Assembly (NCBI GenBank): GCA_017440045.1
Contig: JAFSIA010000011.1
Location: forward strand, 96 to 64,095
Direction of reading: 5' to 3'
Origin: Lachnospiraceae bacterium
GTDB lineage: Bacteria > Bacillota > Clostridia > Lachnospirales > Lachnospiraceae
Length of the DNA: 64,000 nt
This document shows positions 8,508 to 20,491 of this stretch, in pieces (positions within the stretch are counted from its first letter, which is position 1; each line of letters starts with the position of its first letter). Under the pieces are notes generated by a model. It was not told the DNA's origin. It saw nothing but the letters and a program-made list of their open reading frames with translations, and ran no database searches. Made by a program: the position numbers and the translations under genes.

Positions 8508-11057
8508 TTAATCTGCAAAATTCTTTTCTGTCAATATCTTATATCCGTCCTCATCCTTTTTGCTTCCAAAAAGTTTTTTAAGACTAAACTTATTTGCATC
8601 CTTTATAGCTGCATCAATGAGCTGTTCTACGTGGTTTTTGTGTACTACTAATGTAATGGCACGTAGCTGGTCAATCTTTGCACTTAATGCCAATGTTCCC
8701 ATCTCGTCTATGACATAGCCACACTCTTTTGCATATTCCTTCGCAATATCAGCCCAATCCTTTATCTTATTTACTTTTATGTCTATAAGATTAGGGAACT
8801 GATTATAACCCTCAGGAACCTTTGAAAGGAATCCTTCTGCCAAAGATTTCTCATCCTCAAAGATAACAACTCTTGGCTTTCCTTCCTCCTTAAGCTTGTC
8901 TATAAACTCTGTAAATACATCAATATTTACATCTGAAACTCTCTCGATAAGCACGTCGCTTCCTGCCAAAACTTCAAGAAGTGAATCCATAGATTTGTCA
9001 TTTAAGTTAATTCCCTTAATCTTGGCAATCTTCTGGTCACGTCTTTGCATTATTTTATTAGCAAGCTTGATGACATCTATGGCAAGAGTAGTCTTTCCAC
9101 TCTTTACCTCACCTTTGACAAATATAAACTTAACAGGCTCTGCTCCGCCTTTTAAAACAGACTGCATTACCTTTAATATCTGCTTATCTAAGCCCTGAAC
9201 TCCTGTAAACTTAGCGATGAATGCCTTGATTTCTCTCTTGGCGATTTCGGACTGCTTCTTTCTAGGATCCTCGGTGACTACCGGCTGCACAACAGGTTCC
9301 TCCTCTTCTTCATCTTCTTCGCTATCGTCATCTATATCTTCGCTGCCTTCGTCTTCCTCGTCATCATCTTCGTACGACTGGTCAACCTCTTCCGGTTCTT
9401 CCATAAGGACTTCTTCAGCAGCTTCCTCTAACTCTTCTATAGCTTCCGACTCTTCAGATTCTTCTATTTCATTCTTTAAATCAAACATAACAGGTCCACT
9501 CTCCTGCTGATCAGATTCAGCATCTTCGCTGTGTTCCTCATTTGTAGCTATGTCTTCTTCATCCATTTCCTCTAATGCTTCTTCTATGGCTTCCTCTATC
9601 TCTTCATCTAAATCTTCCTCGATATCCTCTGCCATATCCTCCACATCATCAGATATTTCATTTTCCTCAATTTCTTCGTCTATTTCTTCATCAATATCTT
9701 CTATGATTTCCTCTGCCACAGCTGATGCGAGAGCAGATACTTCATCTTCTTCATCTTCTATATCTTCAAGCTCTTGGAAATCCTCATCTTCTATGTCAGG
9801 AACCTCCTCCTGTTCAGAGATTTCTTCCGAAACATCCACTGATATTTCCTCTGAGAGCTCCTCAGATTCAGCTACTTCCTCTGATTCAACCGTCTCCTCT
9901 AATCCAGCTACTTCCTCTGATTCAACTGTTTCCTCAGATTCAACACCTTCCTCTGCCTCTACAGCTTCTACGTTTTCTTCTGGTTCAGCTACCTCCTCAG
10001 GCACAACAGTTACTTCTGTCATATCTTCTGCAGGCTCACTTTTCGCCTGAATCTCGCCGGATTCAAACATAGCCAATACTTCCTCAAGACTCATCTGACC
10101 CTCTATCTGGTCATCTTCAGGCTGCTCTGCCTCCGCAGACTTTGGCAATGTTGGCTTGAAAATTTCTACTGTATTATCAAAAATGCTGCTTACACTCTTT
10201 GCAAGCTCCTTTTGAATATTCATAGTATCATAACTATTATTCTCAGAAAAATCTTTTACATGTATAGAATTTACATCTATATCCATCTCATGAACCTTAT
10301 CAAGTATTTCATTATCCTCTGGCTCGCGATTTTCTGGTTTTGCCTCTTCCTTCTCTGGAACCTGTTCTTCCTTTATCTCTACCTTTTCTGGCGCATCTTC
10401 CGAAACAGATGTAGCTGCCGGCACCTGTACAATACCTGCCTTCTTACTCTTTTGAGCCTCATATTTGAGCTTCTGGTTTTCTGATAATGGTACATAAAGC
10501 TGCTTAAGCTCCAATGCCTTTTCTACATACTTGCCATCTGCAAACCAAAGAATGATAGTGTCGCAAAGCTCCACGCACTTCTCGCTAAAATGCGCCTTGT
10601 GATAAAGCTTTGCAAGCTCATATGCCCATCTGTCATCCATATCTTCCTCGATAAATGTTTCCAATATCTTTATCTGGTTTTCGATGGACTCTCCCTTACC
10701 TTTTGCCATCTCATACTGAAGAATATACTTTCCGGCATCTCTAGGAGAATTATCTGTAAACTCCTCATAAAATTCCTGAGCCTCAGCCATGTCACCACGC
10801 TTCACAGACAATCTACACAAACGATAAGCAAGCTGTCTTCCCAGTCCTGTTTTTTCATACGCCAAAAGAAGGGCCTCTCTTGCCGCATCATACTTTCCAG
10901 CGATTTCATAAACATCTGCTGCCATAATAAGGAGCTGGTTTTCCCTAACCTTTCTCCATTCGATTCCGTCTGCTATCTTTACTGCAGTTGCAAAATCCTT
11001 CTTCTTCATCAGCTTTTTTATCTGTTCGATTTTAATATTGAATTCGTATTTATCCAT
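8508..11057 (-). CDS. 849-aa protein: N-terminal TPR-like helical repeats, ~385-residue poly-acidic (E/D) tract, C-terminal P-loop NTPase (AAA-like)
   Basis: The N-terminus has a TPR-like helix-pair pattern. Roughly residues 215-600 are dominated by E/D. The C-terminus has Walker A GEVKSGKTT and Walker B-like VVIFEDE. Confidence 0.8.
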   Translation of the reverse strand: MDKYEFNIKIEQIKKLMKKKDFATAVKIADGIEWRKVRENQLLIMAADVYEIAGKYDAAREALLLAYEKTGLGRQLAYRLCRLSVKRGDMAEAQEFYEEFTDNSPRDAGKYILQYEMAKGKGESIENQIKILETFIEEDMDDRWAYELAKLYHKAHFSEKCVELCDTIILWFADGKYVEKALELKQLYVPLSENQKLKYEAQKSKKAGIVQVPAATSVSEDAPEKVEIKEEQVPEKEEAKPENREPEDNEILDKVHEMDIDVNSIHVKDFSENNSYDTMNIQKELAKSVSSIFDNTVEIFKPTLPKSAEAEQPEDDQIEGQMSLEEVLAMFESGEIQAKSEPAEDMTEVTVVPEEVAEPEENVEAVEAEEGVESEETVESEEVAGLEETVESEEVAESEELSEEISVDVSEEISEQEEVPDIEDEDFQELEDIEDEEDEVSALASAVAEEIIEDIDEEIDEEIEENEISDDVEDMAEDIEEDLDEEIEEAIEEALEEMDEEDIATNEEHSEDAESDQQESGPVMFDLKNEIEESEESEAIEELEEAAEEVLMEEPEEVDQSYEDDDEEDEGSEDIDDDSEEDEEEEEPVVQPVVTEDPRKKQSEIAKREIKAFIAKFTGVQGLDKQILKVMQSVLKGGAEPVKFIFVKGEVKSGKTTLAIDVIKLANKIMQRRDQKIAKIKGINLNDKSMDSLLEVLAGSDVLIERVSDVNIDVFTEFIDKLKEEGKPRVVIFEDEKSLAEGFLSKVPEGYNQFPNLIDIKVNKIKDWADIAKEYAKECGYVIDEMGTLALSAKIDQLRAITLVVHKNHVEQLIDAAIKDANKFSLKKLFGSKKDEDGYKILTEKNFAD
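9863..9950. repeat. 36-nt period in-frame tandem repeat inside the acidic tract
   Basis: agctacttcctctgattcaac occurs at 9870-9890 and again at 9906-9926, with related flanks. It encodes EETVESEEVA(G/E)(L/S) units. Confidence 0.8.
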
Positions 11058-11151
11058 TTCAAAACCCTCTCATTTGTTTGGAACATTCACTGCACATAAC
11101 CTTTTTAACTATATCACAATAACAGCCTTTTGTCACCTAGCTTGCCACATT

Positions 11152-13821
11152 TTACATATCACCAAAAAGACTCGCCTGCTCAAATTCAAGTTTAGCATAA
11201 TCCATCTTTTCATTGTCAACGTGACTGCTGTAATCGACCACAACCGTCTGCTGACGACCATCTATAAGCTTTTGACCTAATATATAGTTCACATCAAATC
11301 TGCCTGTTATGGCCGGCGTCACACCTCTTGCGGGAACCACAAGCTGTACATTATTTGTCTTAAGCAGTTTAAAAATTGGCTCCCAGATATAAATATCTTT
11401 TGCTGCACCAAACGGATTATCGATAAAGATGACCTTTCTAAGTCCTGTGTCCTTATCTCTTGAATTGATTGATGCAATATAATTGATAATGGCAATAAGG
11501 AACTGTATATAAATACCCTGAGACTGACCGGTACTTCCTACTGCCTCCTCATATCTTAAATATCTGCTCTGCTCCTTTATACGCTCGCGTTTATAAAGGT
11601 TAAGCTTTATACCATTCATATCTGTAACAATAACAGAGAAAAGCTTCTTCCAAGACAATCTGCTCTTTATATATTTAATTCTCTCTGCTTCATTCTTCAT
11701 GTCGTCAGCCATCTTTGTTGTCTCATCAATATATTGAGACATCTTGAATTTGTACTGGTCCTCTTTAACGTATGGCACATTTAAATTGATAATGGAAATA
11801 ACTTCGTCATCCATAGTTATCTTTGACTGCTTTGGTAGTCTGTCCAGCTCATTTTTAATGTTTACACATGTCTGTATACACTGATTTTCAAAGTTATCCT
11901 TTATCTTTTCCATATCATCAATGCTCTTACCAACTCTGTCCTTTTCAAGCTCTAAGCATCTGCAAATTTCCTTTAACGACGCCATAAGTTCATCTGTTTC
12001 TCTCACATTAAGAGGCATTGACACACTTCTCTTCATCTCATCTGACAAGCCCTCTGCACCAAGCTTTCTCAATATATCAGAAAGCATTCCTCTCTCCTGC
12101 TCGAACTCTGATTTCTTATCAGATAAATCCTTTGTATACTTATCAAACTTCTCAAGTACTGTGCCTATAGTTTCCTCGAAATCCGCCTCTGCCATCGCGT
12201 ACTGGCTGTAATCCTCCTGCTTTGAGGCATATATGCCCGCTCTATCCATAACCTTTGCAACATCCTTCTTAAGGACATCATACTTACCTGCATTTTTCTG
12301 CGTAGCTAAAAGGGCTTCTCTAACCTTTTCCAACTCTCTTCCCACAGCATCTACCTGCAATTTCTTATCTTCGATAAAGGAAGCAAAATCGCCATTTTCC
12401 ACTGCAACCGGCGTATACTGGCCATATTTTTCTTCCATAGCCGCCTTGCCGTGAGCTATGGCACCCTCAAGTCTATCCTTGCGGCTTCTAAGCTTTGCAA
12501 TCTTTGCCACATAGGAGTCAAGCTTTGCCTTGGCATTCTCAATATTTTCCTTAAGTTCTAAAAGCTCTTCCTTCGATATCTCTCTGCCTGTAAGTGCCTC
12601 ATACTTAGCCTTTACATCCTCCACAAATAAGCCCTTGTAGTCTATAGCCTGCAATGACTTCTCCATAGCAATATCATAGTTTTCAACGAGCTTCTGTTTA
12701 TCAGAAATATCTGCGCTGTCACTTTCTAATGCGCCAATAAGACCTTTTACCCTTGATTCTAATTCCACATCAGACATGGCTGATACAGCATAATTGCCCT
12801 CTTTATAATATTTTCTATATGCACTAAGCTTGTTGTCACATAATTCCTTCTGCTTTTTAAGACCCTCTATATGTCTCTTTCTCTCCTTGGACTGGTTAAC
12901 CTCAGCCTCATATCTCGCCTTGGCATCATCAATTTCCTTTTCGAGCTTCTTTACCTTAACTGAAGCCATAGATAACTTTGAAGATACCTTCGACGCCTGT
13001 TCTATAAGCTCCCTAATAGATTCAAGCTCCTTTAACTCTCTCTCTCCATCTATAATACTACCCTCAAGAATAGTACTGCTTGAAGCAAAATCAGCTAAAG
13101 TCTTATCTATATCAGAAAGGTCTGCTTGCTTTTCAGACAGCTTTACTTCCAGCTCCTTTATAGCATTTCTAAGATAATCATAGTGTTCATTTGCCTCTTC
13201 AATCTGTGAAAGATACACAGCTTCATACTCTTTGGCAAAGTCATAATCATCCTGCAACAGTTTAACCTTCTCTGAAATACGCTCAAGCTTAAATGACAAA
13301 TCTTCTATCTGGCTGACAGTTTTTGTTATCTCTTTTTCAATCAACTTCTCATCTGTGAAAAGCTTACTGTCACCCATAACAAACATCATATTCATATTGT
13401 CCATAATATGGCCTGTGCCCTCAATAGCCTTAATGGATATAACCGGCACAGCATAGTCACCAAGCTCCAACTCACTTAATCTGTCATCAGAAATAATAGT
13501 CTGATAATCTCTTAATACAACAATACTATATGGAAGCACAGGGATTCTGTGAAGAATATCCTCTCGCTCTGAGGCACTTCTCCCTTTGAGATAATCAGCA
13601 CCATACATAACAGCATCGCCATGGTATCTTTCCATATATTCCATAACTTTGCCTGCTTCCTTTGCAACACCTACCGGACATCCAGTCTTTAGCTGCTCTA
13701 CGTACACACGCTTATATCCCAAGCTATCATTATATGACTGCTCCTCAAGCATAGCATCTTTGCTTCTAAGCTTAATGCTTTCGATAAGTGACTTAAGGCT
13801 ACTTTCCCCATAGATTTCCAT
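11152..13821 (-). CDS. MukB/JetC-like SMC-family ATPase, C-terminal segment (coiled coil + C-terminal head)
   Basis: 889-aa ORF with a long E/K/L-rich heptad-like sequence. The C-terminal head has the signature-like GSTGQSQG and Walker B VIFIDNPFG (11407-11433). The ATG at 13819-13821 lies one codon after an in-frame TAG. Confidence 0.75.
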   Translation of the reverse strand: MEIYGESSLKSLIESIKLRSKDAMLEEQSYNDSLGYKRVYVEQLKTGCPVGVAKEAGKVMEYMERYHGDAVMYGADYLKGRSASEREDILHRIPVLPYSIVVLRDYQTIISDDRLSELELGDYAVPVISIKAIEGTGHIMDNMNMMFVMGDSKLFTDEKLIEKEITKTVSQIEDLSFKLERISEKVKLLQDDYDFAKEYEAVYLSQIEEANEHYDYLRNAIKELEVKLSEKQADLSDIDKTLADFASSSTILEGSIIDGERELKELESIRELIEQASKVSSKLSMASVKVKKLEKEIDDAKARYEAEVNQSKERKRHIEGLKKQKELCDNKLSAYRKYYKEGNYAVSAMSDVELESRVKGLIGALESDSADISDKQKLVENYDIAMEKSLQAIDYKGLFVEDVKAKYEALTGREISKEELLELKENIENAKAKLDSYVAKIAKLRSRKDRLEGAIAHGKAAMEEKYGQYTPVAVENGDFASFIEDKKLQVDAVGRELEKVREALLATQKNAGKYDVLKKDVAKVMDRAGIYASKQEDYSQYAMAEADFEETIGTVLEKFDKYTKDLSDKKSEFEQERGMLSDILRKLGAEGLSDEMKRSVSMPLNVRETDELMASLKEICRCLELEKDRVGKSIDDMEKIKDNFENQCIQTCVNIKNELDRLPKQSKITMDDEVISIINLNVPYVKEDQYKFKMSQYIDETTKMADDMKNEAERIKYIKSRLSWKKLFSVIVTDMNGIKLNLYKRERIKEQSRYLRYEEAVGSTGQSQGIYIQFLIAIINYIASINSRDKDTGLRKVIFIDNPFGAAKDIYIWEPIFKLLKTNNVQLVVPARGVTPAITGRFDVNYILGQKLIDGRQQTVVVDYSSHVDNEKMDYAKLEFEQASLFGDM

Positions 13822-13824
13822 AAG

Positions 13825-14067
13825 CTACTTAGCCTTAGACTCCACCTCTGAAAGTCTTGTCTTTGTATCAATATTATCGCTTAGAGCCTTATTCAGTCTG
13901 TCCATCTCCACATTCATATCGTGAATTGCATATTCAAGCTCATGCTTTTTCTCTAATGAAGCATTTACACTATCCCTATTTTTCACAAGAAGTGTCTTAG
14001 CCTCATTTAGCTTAGCTTTACCTCTCTCTATTTCACCGCGGACATCTGATACCATATAAAGGTCCAA
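13825..14067 (-). CDS. 80-codon coiled-coil fragment lying in the same frame between the two halves of the SMC-like gene
   Basis: It is in the same reading frame as 14113..15594 and 11152..13821 and is bounded by in-frame TAG codons at 14113-14115 and 13825-13827. The ORF-track start is a TTG. Independent translation is doubtful. Confidence 0.35.
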   Translation of the reverse strand: MDLYMVSDVRGEIERGKAKLNEAKTLLVKNRDSVNASLEKKHELEYAIHDMNVEMDRLNKALSDNIDTKTRLSEVESKAK

Positions 14068-14112
14068 ACTTCCCTTTCTCTCAGCTATCTCCCTATTAAG
14101 GTCTGCCTCCTG

Positions 14113-15594
14113 CTACCTCAGGTCATTTACAAGATATTCATTTACAGCCTTCTCACCCTGGCTATTTCTTATGCTTTCAGACAGCTCATCCAATAGCTGT
14201 GACTCCATAGCAAGAATTCGCTCTTCCTTTGTTATCTCGTTATCAATAAATTGCTGCTGCTTGCATATTCTCTCCCACACCTGGCCTACTGCCTCTGTTA
14301 CCTGGGTAAGAAGCTCTCCCTTATCCTTTAGACATGAATCGATAAGCTCTCTCATCTCATCACGCTGACTCTTGTAATAAACATAATCAGCGTAATCATT
14401 GATACTCTCCTTTAATGTAAGCTCCTCATTAGCTTCCTTTAAATCGATAGACGCTAAGCCCTGCTCACTTATAAGTTCCTCAATGTCCTTTGAAAGGTCC
14501 ATAGCTTCAGCTTCATTTCCACTGATTTTCGCACTATCAATAAGACTCTCAATCTGGTTTTTCTCATCGTTGAGTGCCTGTTCCTTATCCTTTAAAACAA
14601 TTGCTTCCTGCTCATCCTTAAGGCTCATATATTCCAGAGCATAGAAGCATTTTAAAATGCTCTCGTTTATATCTTCCCTGCCGAAATAAAGCTGCTTAAT
14701 AGACTGAACTCTTGATGCAAAGCCATCAATAACTTCAATCTGTCTGTCAAAGCTCTGTATATCTTCCTTCTTTTTAGCAAGCTCCAATAGCTTGTCCTTA
14801 ATATCAAGAAGTGTCTTTGCCATATAATCAGATTCGCCTTCGCTATCAGTCTGATTGACAAAGGATTTTTGTATAATTTCCTCTATGAGCAAATCCTCTA
14901 CAACCTTTCTGGTTGTCTTGTAATTTGTCTCAAAATATGTTCTAACGTGACCCTCAGTTTTATTGATACCTCGGATTATTTCCCATTCGCTCTCATAGAG
15001 ACCGTAATTCGCAATAAATCTCTGATAGTCACCCTTTCTCTCAAAAATCTTAATCTCAAGACTTAAATCCTTCTTCTCCAACTCTCGAAGATACGCCTTT
15101 AAGCCATTGTAAGTAATCCTCTCCTTGCCGTTTGAAAGGGGAAGATTTTTAATATCATTATCATTAAACTCTCGATAAAAAATTACATAGTTAAAATACT
15201 CTATTGCTGCGTTTTCCTTAACAGGGCCTGCCGCCATCTCCTGACCGTCGTCAGCTGCCGCATCATCCTTGGCTTTTCTTGCACAAAAGCCTGTAAGCAT
15301 ATACTTGTAGTTATTCTTTACATGGGCATCACTGAGTCTCCACTCAATAAGTGAGTGGATAGTCTTACTGCCATCTGATGTTCTAAAAAGCTTCTCTATT
15401 GGCTGCTTCTCATCTAATGTACAATTTGGTATAAGATTCTGCAAAAGAAGAAGCATAAGCACACTTTTTCCTCCACCATTTGCCAAATCATAAATGGTGT
15501 TTTTGCAGGAAAAACGCATAAGAAAATCGTCATAATACTGTGTGCCGAAGTTGTATTTTACATTATTTACACGAATTCTGTTAATGTGTGGCAT
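14113..15594 (-). CDS. MukB/JetC-like SMC-family ATPase, N-terminal segment (N-terminal head + coiled coil)
   Basis: 493-aa ORF beginning MPHINRIRVNNVKYNFG, with Walker A DLANGGGKSV (about 15463-15480) followed by coiled-coil-like sequence. The start overlaps the upstream ORF by 14 nt. Confidence 0.75.
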   Translation of the reverse strand: MPHINRIRVNNVKYNFGTQYYDDFLMRFSCKNTIYDLANGGGKSVLMLLLLQNLIPNCTLDEKQPIEKLFRTSDGSKTIHSLIEWRLSDAHVKNNYKYMLTGFCARKAKDDAAADDGQEMAAGPVKENAAIEYFNYVIFYREFNDNDIKNLPLSNGKERITYNGLKAYLRELEKKDLSLEIKIFERKGDYQRFIANYGLYESEWEIIRGINKTEGHVRTYFETNYKTTRKVVEDLLIEEIIQKSFVNQTDSEGESDYMAKTLLDIKDKLLELAKKKEDIQSFDRQIEVIDGFASRVQSIKQLYFGREDINESILKCFYALEYMSLKDEQEAIVLKDKEQALNDEKNQIESLIDSAKISGNEAEAMDLSKDIEELISEQGLASIDLKEANEELTLKESINDYADYVYYKSQRDEMRELIDSCLKDKGELLTQVTEAVGQVWERICKQQQFIDNEITKEERILAMESQLLDELSESIRNSQGEKAVNEYLVNDLR

Positions 15595-16297
15595 CGTCTT
15601 TTTCTCCTCTTAAAATCTCGTACAAACGTCCCTTGTAGCTCTCAAAATAATTTTCTATAAGTGCCTTGAATTTATCCTTTGGATAGTATCTGCCCTCCGA
15701 CTCAAGCATAAGTCCCTCTGCTGTCAAAAAGTTAAAAACGAGCTTTACAAAACCGGCCTTTGAACCTCTTGATGCTCTGATGGAAATATCTTCTCCGGAT
15801 ACAACCGGCATATCCTCCCAGACCAATGCCAGCTCTTTAAAGCTTCCTGCCTCTACCTCATCTACCGCAAGCACCGACAGATTGCTTATGATTCCTGAAA
15901 GTGTAGAATCAACACTGGCTATTATATCCTCCTGCTTTACATACTCCACGTATGTATAATTTGCCGAATCGTTATAAAACATTGTGATAATGTTGTATAT
16001 GATAAAATAACACAAATAGAGCTCTCTATTGAGCTTTACACCAATGGCTTTTTTAAGCTCTTCATTGGTATAACCAAAGGTTTTGTTATTCTCTCCCGGA
16101 CTTATGTACAAGCCATAATTATGTTCGAATATGTTGATATTTAATTTCTTTAAAATAGTTTCCACCATATCATAGACTTCGCTGTTGTTCTGATACTCCT
16201 GATATAAGCTGGCATTCTCGCCATTTCTGTCAACTGCTCTGCCTGTTATAAGCTCAGAAACTATATCTAATGCTCTCTCAAGATTTCTGTTTGTCAT
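15581..16297 (-). CDS. 238-aa protein in the MukE/JetB (KITE) position of the triad
   Basis: Size and gene order match (about 500 aa, then about 240 aa, then SMC-like), and it is translationally coupled to the ATPase gene. I recognise no motif directly. Confidence 0.5.
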   Translation of the reverse strand: MTNRNLERALDIVSELITGRAVDRNGENASLYQEYQNNSEVYDMVETILKKLNINIFEHNYGLYISPGENNKTFGYTNEELKKAIGVKLNRELYLCYFIIYNIITMFYNDSANYTYVEYVKQEDIIASVDSTLSGIISNLSVLAVDEVEAGSFKELALVWEDMPVVSGEDISIRASRGSKAGFVKLVFNFLTAEGLMLESEGRYYPKDKFKALIENYFESYKGRLYEILRGEKDDATH

Positions 16298-16309
16298 AAG
16301 CTCTCCTTC

Positions 16310-17833
16310 TTACGCTACCCTCTGGAAATATATATTTGAAATCTCAAATATTCCCTCCAGACTCACCTTGTCATCATCATCGAATGTTAAGCTAAATGCC
16401 AATTCCGACATACCCTTTGCAGCCTCCTTTAGCTCAGCCTCAAAGAATGTATCTGTGTCCTTAGCCACCTCATCTATATCGTAACTCTTCTTTTGGCACA
16501 TATGTACCAACATAGAATAGTAATCTCCATTTTTATATACACCTTCAAAAATAGTTGATAAATGCTCGTTGAAGCTTCTTAAATCAAAGCCCTCTCCAAC
16601 CTGGCATCCACTTAGCTTATCAAGCAATATTTTTATAAGTGTAACGTAGTTGCTGCTGATACGCTGCTCCTCTACCTCGTCCTCGTAGATATAGGTTACA
16701 GCCGTTGCATTTTCCTTTACCTTTTCACCCTTCTCATCACTGGCAGGCTTTGCCATGAGCAGCCTGTCAATTGAAGTGAGTGAAAATTGCTTTTTTGTAT
16801 TCAAATTAAGAATAGGGATAATCATTGATTCAAGCATCTGACTATCACCCTTATTCATCATAGTTCTAAGTGCATCCTTGAAATTAAAGCTTCTTCTAAG
16901 CTTTGAGAACTTGGCTCCCGATATAATTTCATCAGCCTTTATCTGCAAGTCCGTACACGCCGCCAATAACTCCGAATGCTTTGTTATAGCCTTTTTAAGC
17001 TCTGCCTCCAAATAGAAAATCTCAGATGATGTATCAGTATTTTCTGCATCCCTGTCACCTAATGATTCAACTCGCTTTGCTGCCTCTCGCACAAGCTCCA
17101 TATTTCTCACAAAGAGCTTTTGCTCATCCTCGAACCAACGCATTCCTGTATTTACAAATTCCTCGTATGCTCTGGCACCCTCAAATACATCATAGCTTAA
17201 GATATTTAGTACCTCATTTTTTCTGGCTTTAAGTCTGCCAACCTCACTGTTGATTCGCTTTATGACCTCGATACCACCTCTGAAATTGCTGGCTGCAATC
17301 ATTTTAGACAAGAGAACCTGTGCCACACTGATAGAGCTCTCATCCTTTATTTCCTTTGTATCAAGATAAAACTCTATAGCATCAGACGTAATATAATAAC
17401 AGATAACATCATCCTTTATTCTACTGTCTATAAGCTTCATTCGAACTGTTTTCTGTTTTTTATCTGCCGGGTCAAAATATGAGTAAGAAAAAGGTCTACC
17501 ATCATTTTTAATCTTATCAAAAATATATGCAGAAAGCTCTGCTTCCTCCTCACTATCAATGGCAAGCATAAAATCTCTTCTATAGATATCATGGACAAAG
17601 CTCTTGTATTCCTCGTAGGTTACATCCTTCTCGCGGAAGTTATTTTCTTCAATAAAAAAGCGCAATACTGCCATCAAAATATAACCCATATCCAGCTGCT
17701 CATAACGGCCTCCCGCAAACTGGGAGAATGCACCGTCTGTCAGCTTGAAGTATGGGTAATACTTCTTGATGTTCAGCATACGCTCACTATGGTCCTGTAT
17801 AATATCTCTCGTCAGAATATATTCTTCTGCCAT
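16310..17833 (-). CDS. 507-aa protein in the MukF/JetA (kleisin) position of the triad
   Basis: Size and gene order match. It starts 39 nt downstream of the recR stop and ends 12 nt before the next ORF. I recognise no motif directly. Confidence 0.5.
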   Translation of the reverse strand: MAEEYILTRDIIQDHSERMLNIKKYYPYFKLTDGAFSQFAGGRYEQLDMGYILMAVLRFFIEENNFREKDVTYEEYKSFVHDIYRRDFMLAIDSEEEAELSAYIFDKIKNDGRPFSYSYFDPADKKQKTVRMKLIDSRIKDDVICYYITSDAIEFYLDTKEIKDESSISVAQVLLSKMIAASNFRGGIEVIKRINSEVGRLKARKNEVLNILSYDVFEGARAYEEFVNTGMRWFEDEQKLFVRNMELVREAAKRVESLGDRDAENTDTSSEIFYLEAELKKAITKHSELLAACTDLQIKADEIISGAKFSKLRRSFNFKDALRTMMNKGDSQMLESMIIPILNLNTKKQFSLTSIDRLLMAKPASDEKGEKVKENATAVTYIYEDEVEEQRISSNYVTLIKILLDKLSGCQVGEGFDLRSFNEHLSTIFEGVYKNGDYYSMLVHMCQKKSYDIDEVAKDTDTFFEAELKEAAKGMSELAFSLTFDDDDKVSLEGIFEISNIYFQRVA

Positions 17834-17872
17834 CTGATAACTTGCCCCTTTGTACTAAATTCCTGCAGACAC

Positions 17873-18469
17873 CTACAGCTCCGTTCTGCCCTCCAAGGCA
17901 CGAAGAAGTGTAATCTCGTCAATGTATTCCAGGTCACCTCCAACCGGAACACCGCTGGCTATTCGACTCACCTTTATACCTGTAGGTTTAACCAGCTTAG
18001 ATATATAAACTGCTGTAGCCTCGCCCTCAACACTTGAGTTTGTCGCCACAATAATCTCATCTACATCACCGCGAAGTCTCTCCATAAGCTCCTTTAAACG
18101 AATATCATTTGGACCTATGCCAAGCATTGGTGATATTGCCCCATGAAGCACATGGTAAACTCCATCAAACTTACCTGTTCTCTCATATGCCGCCATGTCT
18201 CTTGTCTGTTCAACAACCATAATAACCTTATGGTTTCTCTTAGTGCTCTCACAAATAGGACAATATTCCCTGTCTGTAAGGGTACAGCAGGACTTACAAT
18301 ACTTTACATTCTTCCTTGCTGTGACAATGGCAGATGCCAGGCTTTCTGCCTGTTCCTTAGGCATATTTATAACATGAAATGCAAGTCTTCCCGCAGACTT
18401 GGCGCCAATACCGGGAAGCTTTGCAAACTCTTCAATCAATTTTGATATATGACTGCTATAGTAATCCAT
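17873..18469 (-). CDS. recR: recombination protein RecR
   Basis: 198 aa with helix-hairpin-helix [14 protein letters not shown], a C4 zinc finger ([16 protein letters not shown]) and a Toprim region. Confidence 0.95.
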
Positions 18470-18819
18470 TAGAAAGGAAATCCTCCTCCGAGACCGCCTG
18501 TAATCTTAGCCATCTGCGCCTGTGAAACCTTCTCCATCTCACGTAAAGCTTCATTTGTAGCCGCTACGATTAAATCCTGAAGCATCTCTACATCATCTGG
18601 GTCTAAAACCTCTGGGTCAATCTCTACAGACTTAACTTCCTTCTTACCTGTTACAGTTACCTTAACAGCACCGCCACCTGCAGCTGCTGTTATCTCCTTC
18701 TCTTCAAGCTCCTTTGTAGTCTCCTCCATCTGCTTCTGCATCTTCTGAGCCTGCTTCATTAAATTGTTCATATTTCCTGGCATACCCATGCCACCTGGAA
18801 ATCCACCTCTTCTAGCCAT
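18469..18819 (-). CDS. ybaB: nucleoid-associated protein YbaB/EbfC
   Basis: 116 aa ([18 protein letters not shown]...). Sits in the classic dnaX-ybaB-recR arrangement. Confidence 0.92.
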
Positions 18820-18854
18820 GTTTCTCTTTCCTTTCTTTTTTTAATTTGTTTTTA

Positions 18855-18923
18855 CGCGTTAGCTGTATGCTCCGTTTCTTCGAAACTCCCGCATACAGAT
18901 AATTCATAACTTCGAGCTAACGC
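18855..18923 (-). repeat. structured intergenic element, copy 1 (between dnaX stop and ybaB start)
   Basis: Nested inverted repeats: gcgttagc/gctaacgc, tgtatgc/gcataca and gtttc-ttc-gaaac. The core gtatgctccgtttcttcgaaactcccgcatac (18865-18896) recurs at 37566-37597 and, in degenerate form, at 39701-39731. Confidence 0.7.
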
Positions 18924-20491
18924 TAAAAATCTTCCTCTTCAATATTATCAATATTAATCTTTTTTCTTATTTCTACAAAATGGTCCTCGAAATGCTGTCC
19001 ACTTTCAAGTAACTTTACATCAAGCTTCACTGACTTTCCGATTACATCCGAAATAGCGTTTTCAATATCAGCTACTGTATCCGGTCTACTTATGGCGCCA
19101 AAGTTAACTCCCTCAGTAAAGACTATGGATAATCTGTTATCACCTGTAGCTGTCAGCTTTCCTTCTGAAATGCTGGCCCTGACTAATGGTCCAAGCTTCA
19201 TAACAACCTTATCCCAATTGTTAACAGCCTGCTGTATCTCTTCCGTAACTGCTGGTTCCAGCACCTTTCTAACAGGTCTCTCCGGTTCTCTGGCTGCTCC
19301 ATTAGTTGCTGCCTCAGGCATCATCTTTACCGGAACACCATCCTTAACCTTTTTTTCAAGGTCACTTATTCTGTTAACAAGAGAGCCTAAATCGTTTTCC
19401 ATTGCCGGTTTTGTAAGCTTTATGAATGCCACTTCCACAAGAACTCTCTTCCCTGTAGCATATCTGATTTGGTTTCCAAGCTCCGACATAACCCTTATAT
19501 ATCTCATAAGAGTTTCCAGCTCTACCATTTTTGCTTCTTCCTTCAATGCCGCCAATCTCTCAGCGGACATATCCAGCATTTCCTCTGCTGTATCTGAGCT
19601 TTTCACCAGCATAAGATTCCTTAAATACCATGTAAAATCTGTGACAAACTGCGCCAAATCTCTGCCTAGCAATATAATCTCATCAAGCTTATTTACACAG
19701 CCCAAGGTATCTCCGTCAATTATCAGTCTTAGCATCTGACTAAACACTTCCGTGTCGACTGCTCCCAAAACCTCCAGCACATTTTCATAGGTCAGCTTCT
19801 GGCCCATATAAAATGATATACATTGGTCCAGAAGACTCAAGGCATCTCTCATAGCTCCATCTGCCACTTTTGCTATATACTTAAGAGCCTTTTCCTCCAC
19901 CTCTATAGATTCTCTCTCCGTCAGTTCTTTCAATCTGTCAGTTATAGTTTCTACTGTGATTCTCTTAAAATCATATCTCTGACATCTGGAGAGTATTGTA
20001 ACAGGTATCTTATGCGCCTCTGTTGTGGCTAAGATGAACATAACATATGATGGCGGCTCCTCCAATGTCTTTAACAGGGCATTAAATGCTCCAATAGACA
20101 GCATATGAACCTCGTCGATTATATACACGCGGTACTTGCCCTCTGTAGGCGAATACTGCACCTCATCTCTAATCTCACGAATATTATCTACACCATTGTT
20201 TGATGCAGCATCAATCTCCACCACATTCATGGATGCTCCCGCACTAATAGCCTTGCACATAGCACACTGATTACATGGTCCACCATCTACAGGACTTTCG
20301 CAGTTTACTGCCTTCGCCAATATCTTGGCGATTGTTGTTTTTCCTGTACCTCTGGTTCCACAAAACAGATACGCATGTCCAATTCTCTCTGCCTTAATCT
20401 GGTTTTTCAAGGTCGTAACAATATGATCCTGACCCTTAACTTCACCAAATTCACCAGGCCTAAATTTTCTGTAAAGTGCTGTATAAGACAT
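18923..20491 (-). CDS. dnaX: DNA polymerase III subunit gamma/tau
   Basis: 522 aa with Walker A GTRGTGKTT, the zinc module CESPVDGGPCNQCAMC and an SRC motif (TILSRCQRYDF). Confidence 0.95.
   Translation of the reverse strand: MSYTALYRKFRPGEFGEVKGQDHIVTTLKNQIKAERIGHAYLFCGTRGTGKTTIAKILAKAVNCESPVDGGPCNQCAMCKAISAGASMNVVEIDAASNNGVDNIREIRDEVQYSPTEGKYRVYIIDEVHMLSIGAFNALLKTLEEPPSYVMFILATTEAHKIPVTILSRCQRYDFKRITVETITDRLKELTERESIEVEEKALKYIAKVADGAMRDALSLLDQCISFYMGQKLTYENVLEVLGAVDTEVFSQMLRLIIDGDTLGCVNKLDEIILLGRDLAQFVTDFTWYLRNLMLVKSSDTAEEMLDMSAERLAALKEEAKMVELETLMRYIRVMSELGNQIRYATGKRVLVEVAFIKLTKPAMENDLGSLVNRISDLEKKVKDGVPVKMMPEAATNGAAREPERPVRKVLEPAVTEEIQQAVNNWDKVVMKLGPLVRASISEGKLTATGDNRLSIVFTEGVNFGAISRPDTVADIENAISDVIGKSVKLDVKLLESGQHFEDHFVEIRKKINIDNIEEEDF

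Follow-up and report, generated by a model that had tools for sequence, protein, structure and literature searches.

The classification of type III Wadjet systems as JetABCD reportedly goes back to Doron et al. in 2018. According to its authors, PADLOC calls a Wadjet system only when all four Jet genes are present and assigns sets of three Muk-like genes to the category "other" (PMC9252829). Nuclease-less SMC condensins of the Mks/Muk type have been proposed to be Wadjet derivatives that arose via loss of the nuclease (bioRxiv 10.1101/2025.03.10.642339). Strain-level loss of such systems is already known, given that a Wadjet locus with a frameshifted jetC pseudogene is shown as an example in the PADLOC paper (PMC9252829) and that Clostridium cellulovorans underwent a spontaneous jetABCD deletion and gained plasmid uptake (PMC12287153). 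These described losses are frameshifts or deletions, whereas the locus reported here carries two nonsense substitutions in a system without JetD.

We analyzed a 64-kb stretch of DNA (64,000 nucleotides, referred to as the window here) from a Lachnospiraceae bacterium. Its minus strand carries three consecutive genes in the canonical order jetA-jetB-jetC, which match the PADLOC profiles JetA3, JetB3, and JetC3 along their whole length with E values from 1e-105 to 1e-275. The jetA-like gene (16310..17833) encodes the kleisin subunit and is intact, with a full-length match to JetA3 (E = 2.4e-207). It is followed by an intact jetB-like gene for the KITE subunit (15581..16297; JetB3, E = 6.5e-105; Pfam DUF6063, E = 2e-47), which overlaps the start of the jetC-like gene by 14 nt. 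The jetC-like gene itself (11152..15594) corresponds to the SMC-like ATPase of ∼1470 amino acids that is also found in type III Wadjet. Judged by homology, the cluster is thus nearest to type III Wadjet, yet it lacks the JetD subunit (Toprim/CAP nuclease) that defines this type, both in the window, where no JetD model matched any of 44 proteins, and in the adjacent positions of related loci, such as L058, where none was found beside the cluster. It further differs from type III Wadjet in that an intact JetC ATPase is absent, owing to two premature TAG codons, and in that it sits in a conserved housekeeping neighborhood rather than in a defense island. The dnaX-ybaB-recR genes (17873..20491, minus strand, assigned with Pfam) lie directly upstream; among 70 related loci, recR immediately precedes jetA in 49. 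On its downstream side, the cluster is followed by sua5, rpiB, and the atp operon.

Directly downstream of jetC, and outside the interrupted frame, lies a gene for a protein of 849 amino acids (8508..11057, minus strand) with a TPR-like N terminus, a long acidic middle part, and a C-terminal GKT P-loop-like motif, for which no match was obtained in Pfam, PADLOC, or NCBIfam. A homolog occupies the same position next to jetC in 58 to 67 of 73 loci, including that of Frisingicoccus caecimuris with its different surroundings. The adjacency of recR to jetA and of jetC to this fourth gene leaves no room for jetD in these loci. With three genes for kleisin, KITE, and SMC subunits and none for a nuclease, the cluster resembles MksBEF/MukBEF, and its vertically conserved chromosomal position would fit a role on the host genome, but the fourth gene that accompanies it sets it apart. 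None of the cluster proteins matched a Muk or Mks family in Pfam or NCBIfam. For the JetC-like product, NCBIfam returned weak SMC/Rad50 coiled-coil similarity alone, and comparison at the sequence level with MukB, MksB, or solved SMC structures yielded coiled-coil noise only. The conservation of jetABC with a fourth gene and without a nuclease appears to fit the published proposal of a transition from Wadjet to condensin. Independently of the interrupted reading frame, the presence of this nuclease-less jetABC and its conserved fourth gene beside dnaX-ybaB-recR across Lachnospiraceae may deserve more attention than the stop codons.

The minus strand from 15594 to 11152 forms one frame of 1,481 codons, that is, 1,480 codons and a terminal TAA. 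According to the open reading frame list and the in-frame translation, this frame contains no frameshift and is interrupted by two internal stops, both TAG, at codon 494 (14113..14115) and codon 590 (13825..13827). Fragment 1 (14113..15594, codons 1 to 493 plus TAG) spans the ATPase head lobe of the N terminus, which bears the Walker A motif (GGGKS), and extends through most of the ascending coiled coil. Fragment 2 (13828..14112, codons 495 to 589) is the coiled coil between the stops, in which the TTG at position 14067 is the earliest in-frame start candidate, followed three codons further on by an ATG. Fragment 3 (11152..13824, codons 591 to 1480), whose listed open reading frame starts with the ATG of codon 592 at 13821, contains the probable hinge, the descending coiled coil, and the C-terminal head lobe. 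These results bear out what a first-pass annotation had read from the letters of the window, namely, three collinear open reading frames in the same frame of an SMC-like gene, separated by two TAG codons as the only interruptions. Its description of the second stop as followed by a close ATG also holds, with the context GAGGTGGAGTCTAAGGCTAAG TAG CTT ATG.

The assignment to an SMC-like family is substantiated by the PADLOC JetC3 profile (PDLC00581, 1,473 positions), which matches fragment 1 at positions 1 to 483 (E = 7.5e-222) and fragment 3 at positions 585 to 1470 (E = 9e-275). The gap between the two matches, in the coiled coil, is filled by the 95 codons of fragment 2. Judging from these alignments, the collinearity of the fragments with a single protein is no chance effect. 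A search with the read-through product gave 1,679 relatives, the best 120 of which are all ∼1450 to 1510 amino acids long and cover essentially the whole query, showing that the normal state of the jetC-like gene is a single protein of ∼1480 amino acids. Invariant columns of the family are concentrated in residues 1 to 292 and 1213 to 1473, corresponding to both lobes of the ATPase head. Between them, at about residues 595 to 703, lies a globular patch that is also conserved and probably represents the hinge region; both stops map to the ascending coiled coil immediately ahead of this patch.

To compare these positions across the family, we scanned one genome per species, which revealed a relative of the JetC query in 285 species, and kept 80 loci, labeled almost exclusively as Lachnospiraceae or close relatives. 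An internal stop in jetC was found in none of 81 related loci (the 80 species representatives and the conspecific contig L001). Four jetB alignments seemed to contain stops, which we dismissed because tblastn had extended these alignments beyond the natural stop codon. When 122 full-length homologs were aligned, columns 494 and 590 proved to be occupied by a sense residue in every sequence; column 494 is variable (K, E, A, D, N, and others), while column 590 is K or R in 103 of the 122. A premature stop relative to full-length homologs is the criterion by which NCBI PGAP calls a pseudogene, and in the jetC-like gene both stops fall on codons that are sense codons in the homologs, with collinear homology on either side. 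A conserved split architecture, with the same split and independent starts in many strains, which the first-pass annotation had named as the finding that would speak against gene decay, was rejected on the basis of the 81 unsplit loci.

The alignment of orthologs that the annotation had proposed as a check extended to conspecific alleles. The contigs L001, L083, and L084, which come from independent samples and share ∼99% DNA identity with the window, encode an intact protein of 1,480 amino acids, in which codon 494 is GAG (Glu) and codon 590 is AAG (Lys). At the protein level, this shows in three products of independent read-set assemblies, which are 99% identical to the product of the window and intact, with Glu494 and Lys590. 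Given these alleles, each stop corresponds to one transversion, G>T at 14115 for the first and A>T at 13827 for the second. The fragment proteins of 493 and 889 amino acids, in turn, were each found in one contig among ∼15 billion proteins, so that the lesions are recent and private to the strain by this measure as well. No further conspecific alleles came to light when JGI metagenome contigs were scanned for the sequence patterns of the two stop sites. Over the 7,821 nt shared with L001 (window 17678..9858), we counted 71 substitutions and no indels. Of those inside jetC, 36 are synonymous, 6 are nonsynonymous, and 2 are nonsense changes, indicating that purifying selection acted during nearly all of the divergence and that the inactivation of jetC is recent.

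A fifth sequence refines this picture. In a five-way alignment, the ENA contig L082 (from sample ERZ28653896) carries every window-specific variant across the part that it covers, from codon 527 onward, synonymous variants included, which makes it the closest relative of the window. There is no synonymous difference between the two over 2.86 kb. Codon 494 falls outside this contig, the first base of which lies 96 nt further downstream. At codon 590, L082 reads AAG despite its near-identity to the window, as do the other three conspecific contigs. Its jetC has a lesion of its own, a deletion of 4 nt that removes one unit of TGTTTGTT (window 13378..13381) and causes a frameshift at codons 738 to 739. 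This frameshift, together with the intact codon 590, suggests that disruptive jetC lesions are accumulating independently in the lineage.

We therefore consider it likely, with good confidence, that the three open reading frames are the remains of one jetC-like SMC ATPase gene that underwent recent, strain-private pseudogenization by two nonsense substitutions, as the annotation had listed first among its possible explanations. On the coding strand, two independent single-base transversions would have turned GAG into TAG at codon 494 and AAG into TAG at codon 590. Translation would then stop at codon 494 and leave a fragment made of the head lobe and part of the coil. Such a product would lack the C-terminal lobe with the Walker B and signature motifs, and the ATPase head could not form. 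With this lobe missing, the ATPase and the JetABC-like complex are expected to be inactive. Both TAG codons are presumably real in the cells rather than artifacts of the consensus, in which case no full-length JetC would be made and the complex would be nonfunctional.

The identity of the two stops raises the question of whether they are read as sense codons. Programmed or tolerated amber read-through, by a suppressor tRNA, pyrrolysine, or leaky termination, would yield JetC in full length and might serve a regulatory purpose. TAG is the codon at both stops, and each has C as the next base, a context in which termination is weak in bacteria. However, TAG is an ordinary stop in this DNA. It ends 17 of 55 long open reading frames in the window, essential genes among them, and atpG, recR, and dnaX end in it at their full Pfam domain length, as the annotation had noted. 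A global reassignment of TAG was accordingly rejected, and TAG in jetC is neither conserved in any ortholog nor accompanied by its depletion as a terminator. ARAGORN detected no tRNA gene, suppressor or otherwise, in the window, which covers 64 kb of the genome. Since close strains have ordinary Glu and Lys codons at these sites and all homologs have sense codons, there is nothing conserved to recode. The coincidence of two TAG codons is itself unremarkable. TAG accounts for 50 to 58% of the possible single-step nonsense mutations in jetC, the probability that both stops are TAG is ∼0.25 to 0.33, and that of two random codons lying at most 96 codons apart is ∼0.13, so that neither the shared codon nor the proximity of the stops is significant, and both were discarded as statistical oddities. 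Even at basal read-through, two successive stops would leave a negligible yield. Taken with an interruption that no relative shares, this leaves next to no probability for read-through, which the annotation had offered as a regulatory device.

A second way for the gene to remain useful would be as a naturally split ATPase made by termination and reinitiation, also among the explanations first suggested. Here, ribosomes would restart at the ATG that lies 3 nt past the second stop, and possibly at the TTG or ATG found 16 to 19 codons past the first, and the pieces carrying the N-terminal head lobe and the hinge with the C-terminal head lobe would reassemble via the antiparallel coiled coil. In bacterial translational coupling, close spacing of stop and start favors termination-reinitiation, and the arrangement TAG CTT ATG has such spacing. 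Fragment 3 has retained an open frame of 889 codons, for which the youth of the lesion is a sufficient explanation, and a two-stranded SMC arm could in principle tolerate a nick in one strand. But the protein would have to tolerate two breaks and the lack of residues 494 to 509, and none of the 81 loci is split. The signals that look like restart signals are older than the stops: the intact alleles have the same ATG at codon 592 and, upstream of it, the same GAGGTGGAG and AAGG motifs, and M592 is present in 31 of the 122 homologs. They are thus ordinary coding sequence, and we rejected the idea that restart signals evolved after the stop at codon 590. In addition, AAGG, at 11 nt from the ATG, is the sole SD-like element within range, whereas GAGGTGGAG is at least 18 nt away. 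The further frameshift in L082, the closest relative, is what would be expected of a dead gene. Some reinitiation at TAG CTT ATG is mechanistically possible, though we see no sign of selection for it, and a split JetC that is still partly functional seems to us highly improbable.

The same data bear on whether the stops exist in any cell. Base-calling errors could have produced them, or a metagenome consensus could have merged minority alleles or alleles of different strains, e.g., two different loss-of-function alleles that coexist in a single population. The fragment alleles are singletons in public collections, the near-identical L082 reads AAG at codon 590, and most relatives of the genome are metagenome-assembled genomes (MAGs), so that the source may be one too. 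Moreover, two nonsense changes are mildly unexpected in a gene that is otherwise strongly constrained. When the observed transition-to-transversion ratio was applied to the intact jetC allele, 3.2% of random substitutions gave a nonsense codon (5.5% with equal rates). The probability of at least two nonsense changes among five neutral changes is then roughly 0.01 to 0.03, and that of a second one given the first is ∼0.1 to 0.2. A second nonsense change among so few nonsynonymous changes is therefore mildly improbable under pure neutral decay, and chance, selection for a complete loss, and a mixed-strain consensus are all compatible with the double hit. A local context shared by the two mutated sites, GTAGC, was considered as a motif of systematic error, for which these two sites are the sole basis. 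Against an artifact, it can be said that the comparison with L001 is free of indels over 7.8 kb and that there is no other interrupted gene among ∼55 open reading frames. A six-frame scan of the 64-kb window revealed no further real gene that is divided by one in-frame stop, and the remaining same-frame junctions, e.g., jetA/jetB and rpiB/dCMP deaminase, are normal gene boundaries. With only 3 to 5.5% of substitutions being nonsense, it is very improbable that random errors would hit one gene twice and give a stop both times, and the independent frameshift in L082 points to a real trend of jetC disruption, unless it is an artifact as well. We thus regard an artifact of assembly or consensus as unlikely; sequencing or assembly errors had been the last of the explanations raised at the outset.

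Two near-identical genomes, those of the window and L082, carry three different disruptive lesions (TAG at codon 494, TAG at codon 590, and the 4-nt deletion). Three lesions without a single synonymous difference might mean that loss of the complex was selected for, e.g., to keep a plasmid. On this reading, which we hold to be decidedly improbable, a domesticated Wadjet-III-like module without a nuclease, otherwise part of the conserved core of Lachnospiraceae, would be undergoing recurrent and adaptive inactivation, or else the fragments would work as a split SMC protein via reinitiation at TAG CTT ATG. Recent pseudogenization by two nonsense substitutions, in comparison, makes the inactivation of jetC an ordinary phenomenon of a kind already known, rather than a device for recoding or for splitting the gene.

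For annotation, this means that the three open reading frames should be joined into a single entry, a jetC-like pseudogene (11152..15594, minus strand), rather than listed as three hypothetical proteins, and that TAG is not to be treated as recoded in this organism. For the biology of the family, the strain represents a natural knock-out of a JetABC-like complex that is intact in every related species examined. That the complex is broken here and intact in the relatives suggests that it is dispensable, at least in the habitat of this strain.

The jetC-like gene of L082, the closest relative of the window, carries an independent lesion, a 4-nt deletion that removes one TGTT unit of TGTTTGTT and thereby shifts the reading frame (positions 630-650 of ENA ERZ28653896 scaffold_27221, corresponding to window 13378-13381). 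The perfect tandem TGTTTGTT is limited to the lineage of the window and L082, where it results from a synonymous C>T substitution at position 13378 of the window. With regard to termination codons, the 55 long ORFs of the whole window end in TAA (36), TAG (17), or, unusually rarely, TGA (2), in contrast to the jetC orthologs of other Lachnospiraceae, 28 of 81 of which terminate with TGA.

The 94-nt gap that separates the stop codon of jetC from the next gene contains a promoter-like site (11108..11136, minus strand; GTGACA-17-TATAGT, with TG upstream), identified by consensus match only, suggesting that the genes downstream of jetC may escape polarity of its nonsense mutations. The gene following this gap (8508..11057, minus strand) encodes an 849-amino-acid protein with a TPR-like N terminus (matching consensus TPR structures, E 2e-06), an extremely acidic, E/D-rich middle of ∼350 amino acids, and a C-terminal region containing a P-loop-like GKT motif; no family match was found in Pfam, PADLOC, or NCBIfam. 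The acidic repeat region (9428..9955) shows 85-94% identity with indels among conspecific contigs, versus ∼99% elsewhere, indicating that this low-complexity segment either changes quickly in length and sequence or is hard to assemble. In 58-67 of 73 related loci, jetC is followed directly by a homolog of this gene, as it is in the Frisingicoccus caecimuris locus even though the recR context is missing there; the 849-amino-acid protein may thus represent a fourth subunit or partner in the jetABC-like module.

Within window 8508..20491 and its surroundings, the jetA3-jetB3-jetC3-like cluster is located between dnaX-ybaB-recR on one side and sua5, rpiB, and the atp operon on the other. Synteny of the cluster is kept in most Lachnospiraceae species representatives, recR being its immediate upstream neighbor in 49 of 70 loci, and the cluster lacks jetD both in the window and in 80 related loci (L002-L081). 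The cluster looks like a nuclease-less Wadjet-III/Mks-like SMC module, possibly a domesticated one, rather than a defense island.
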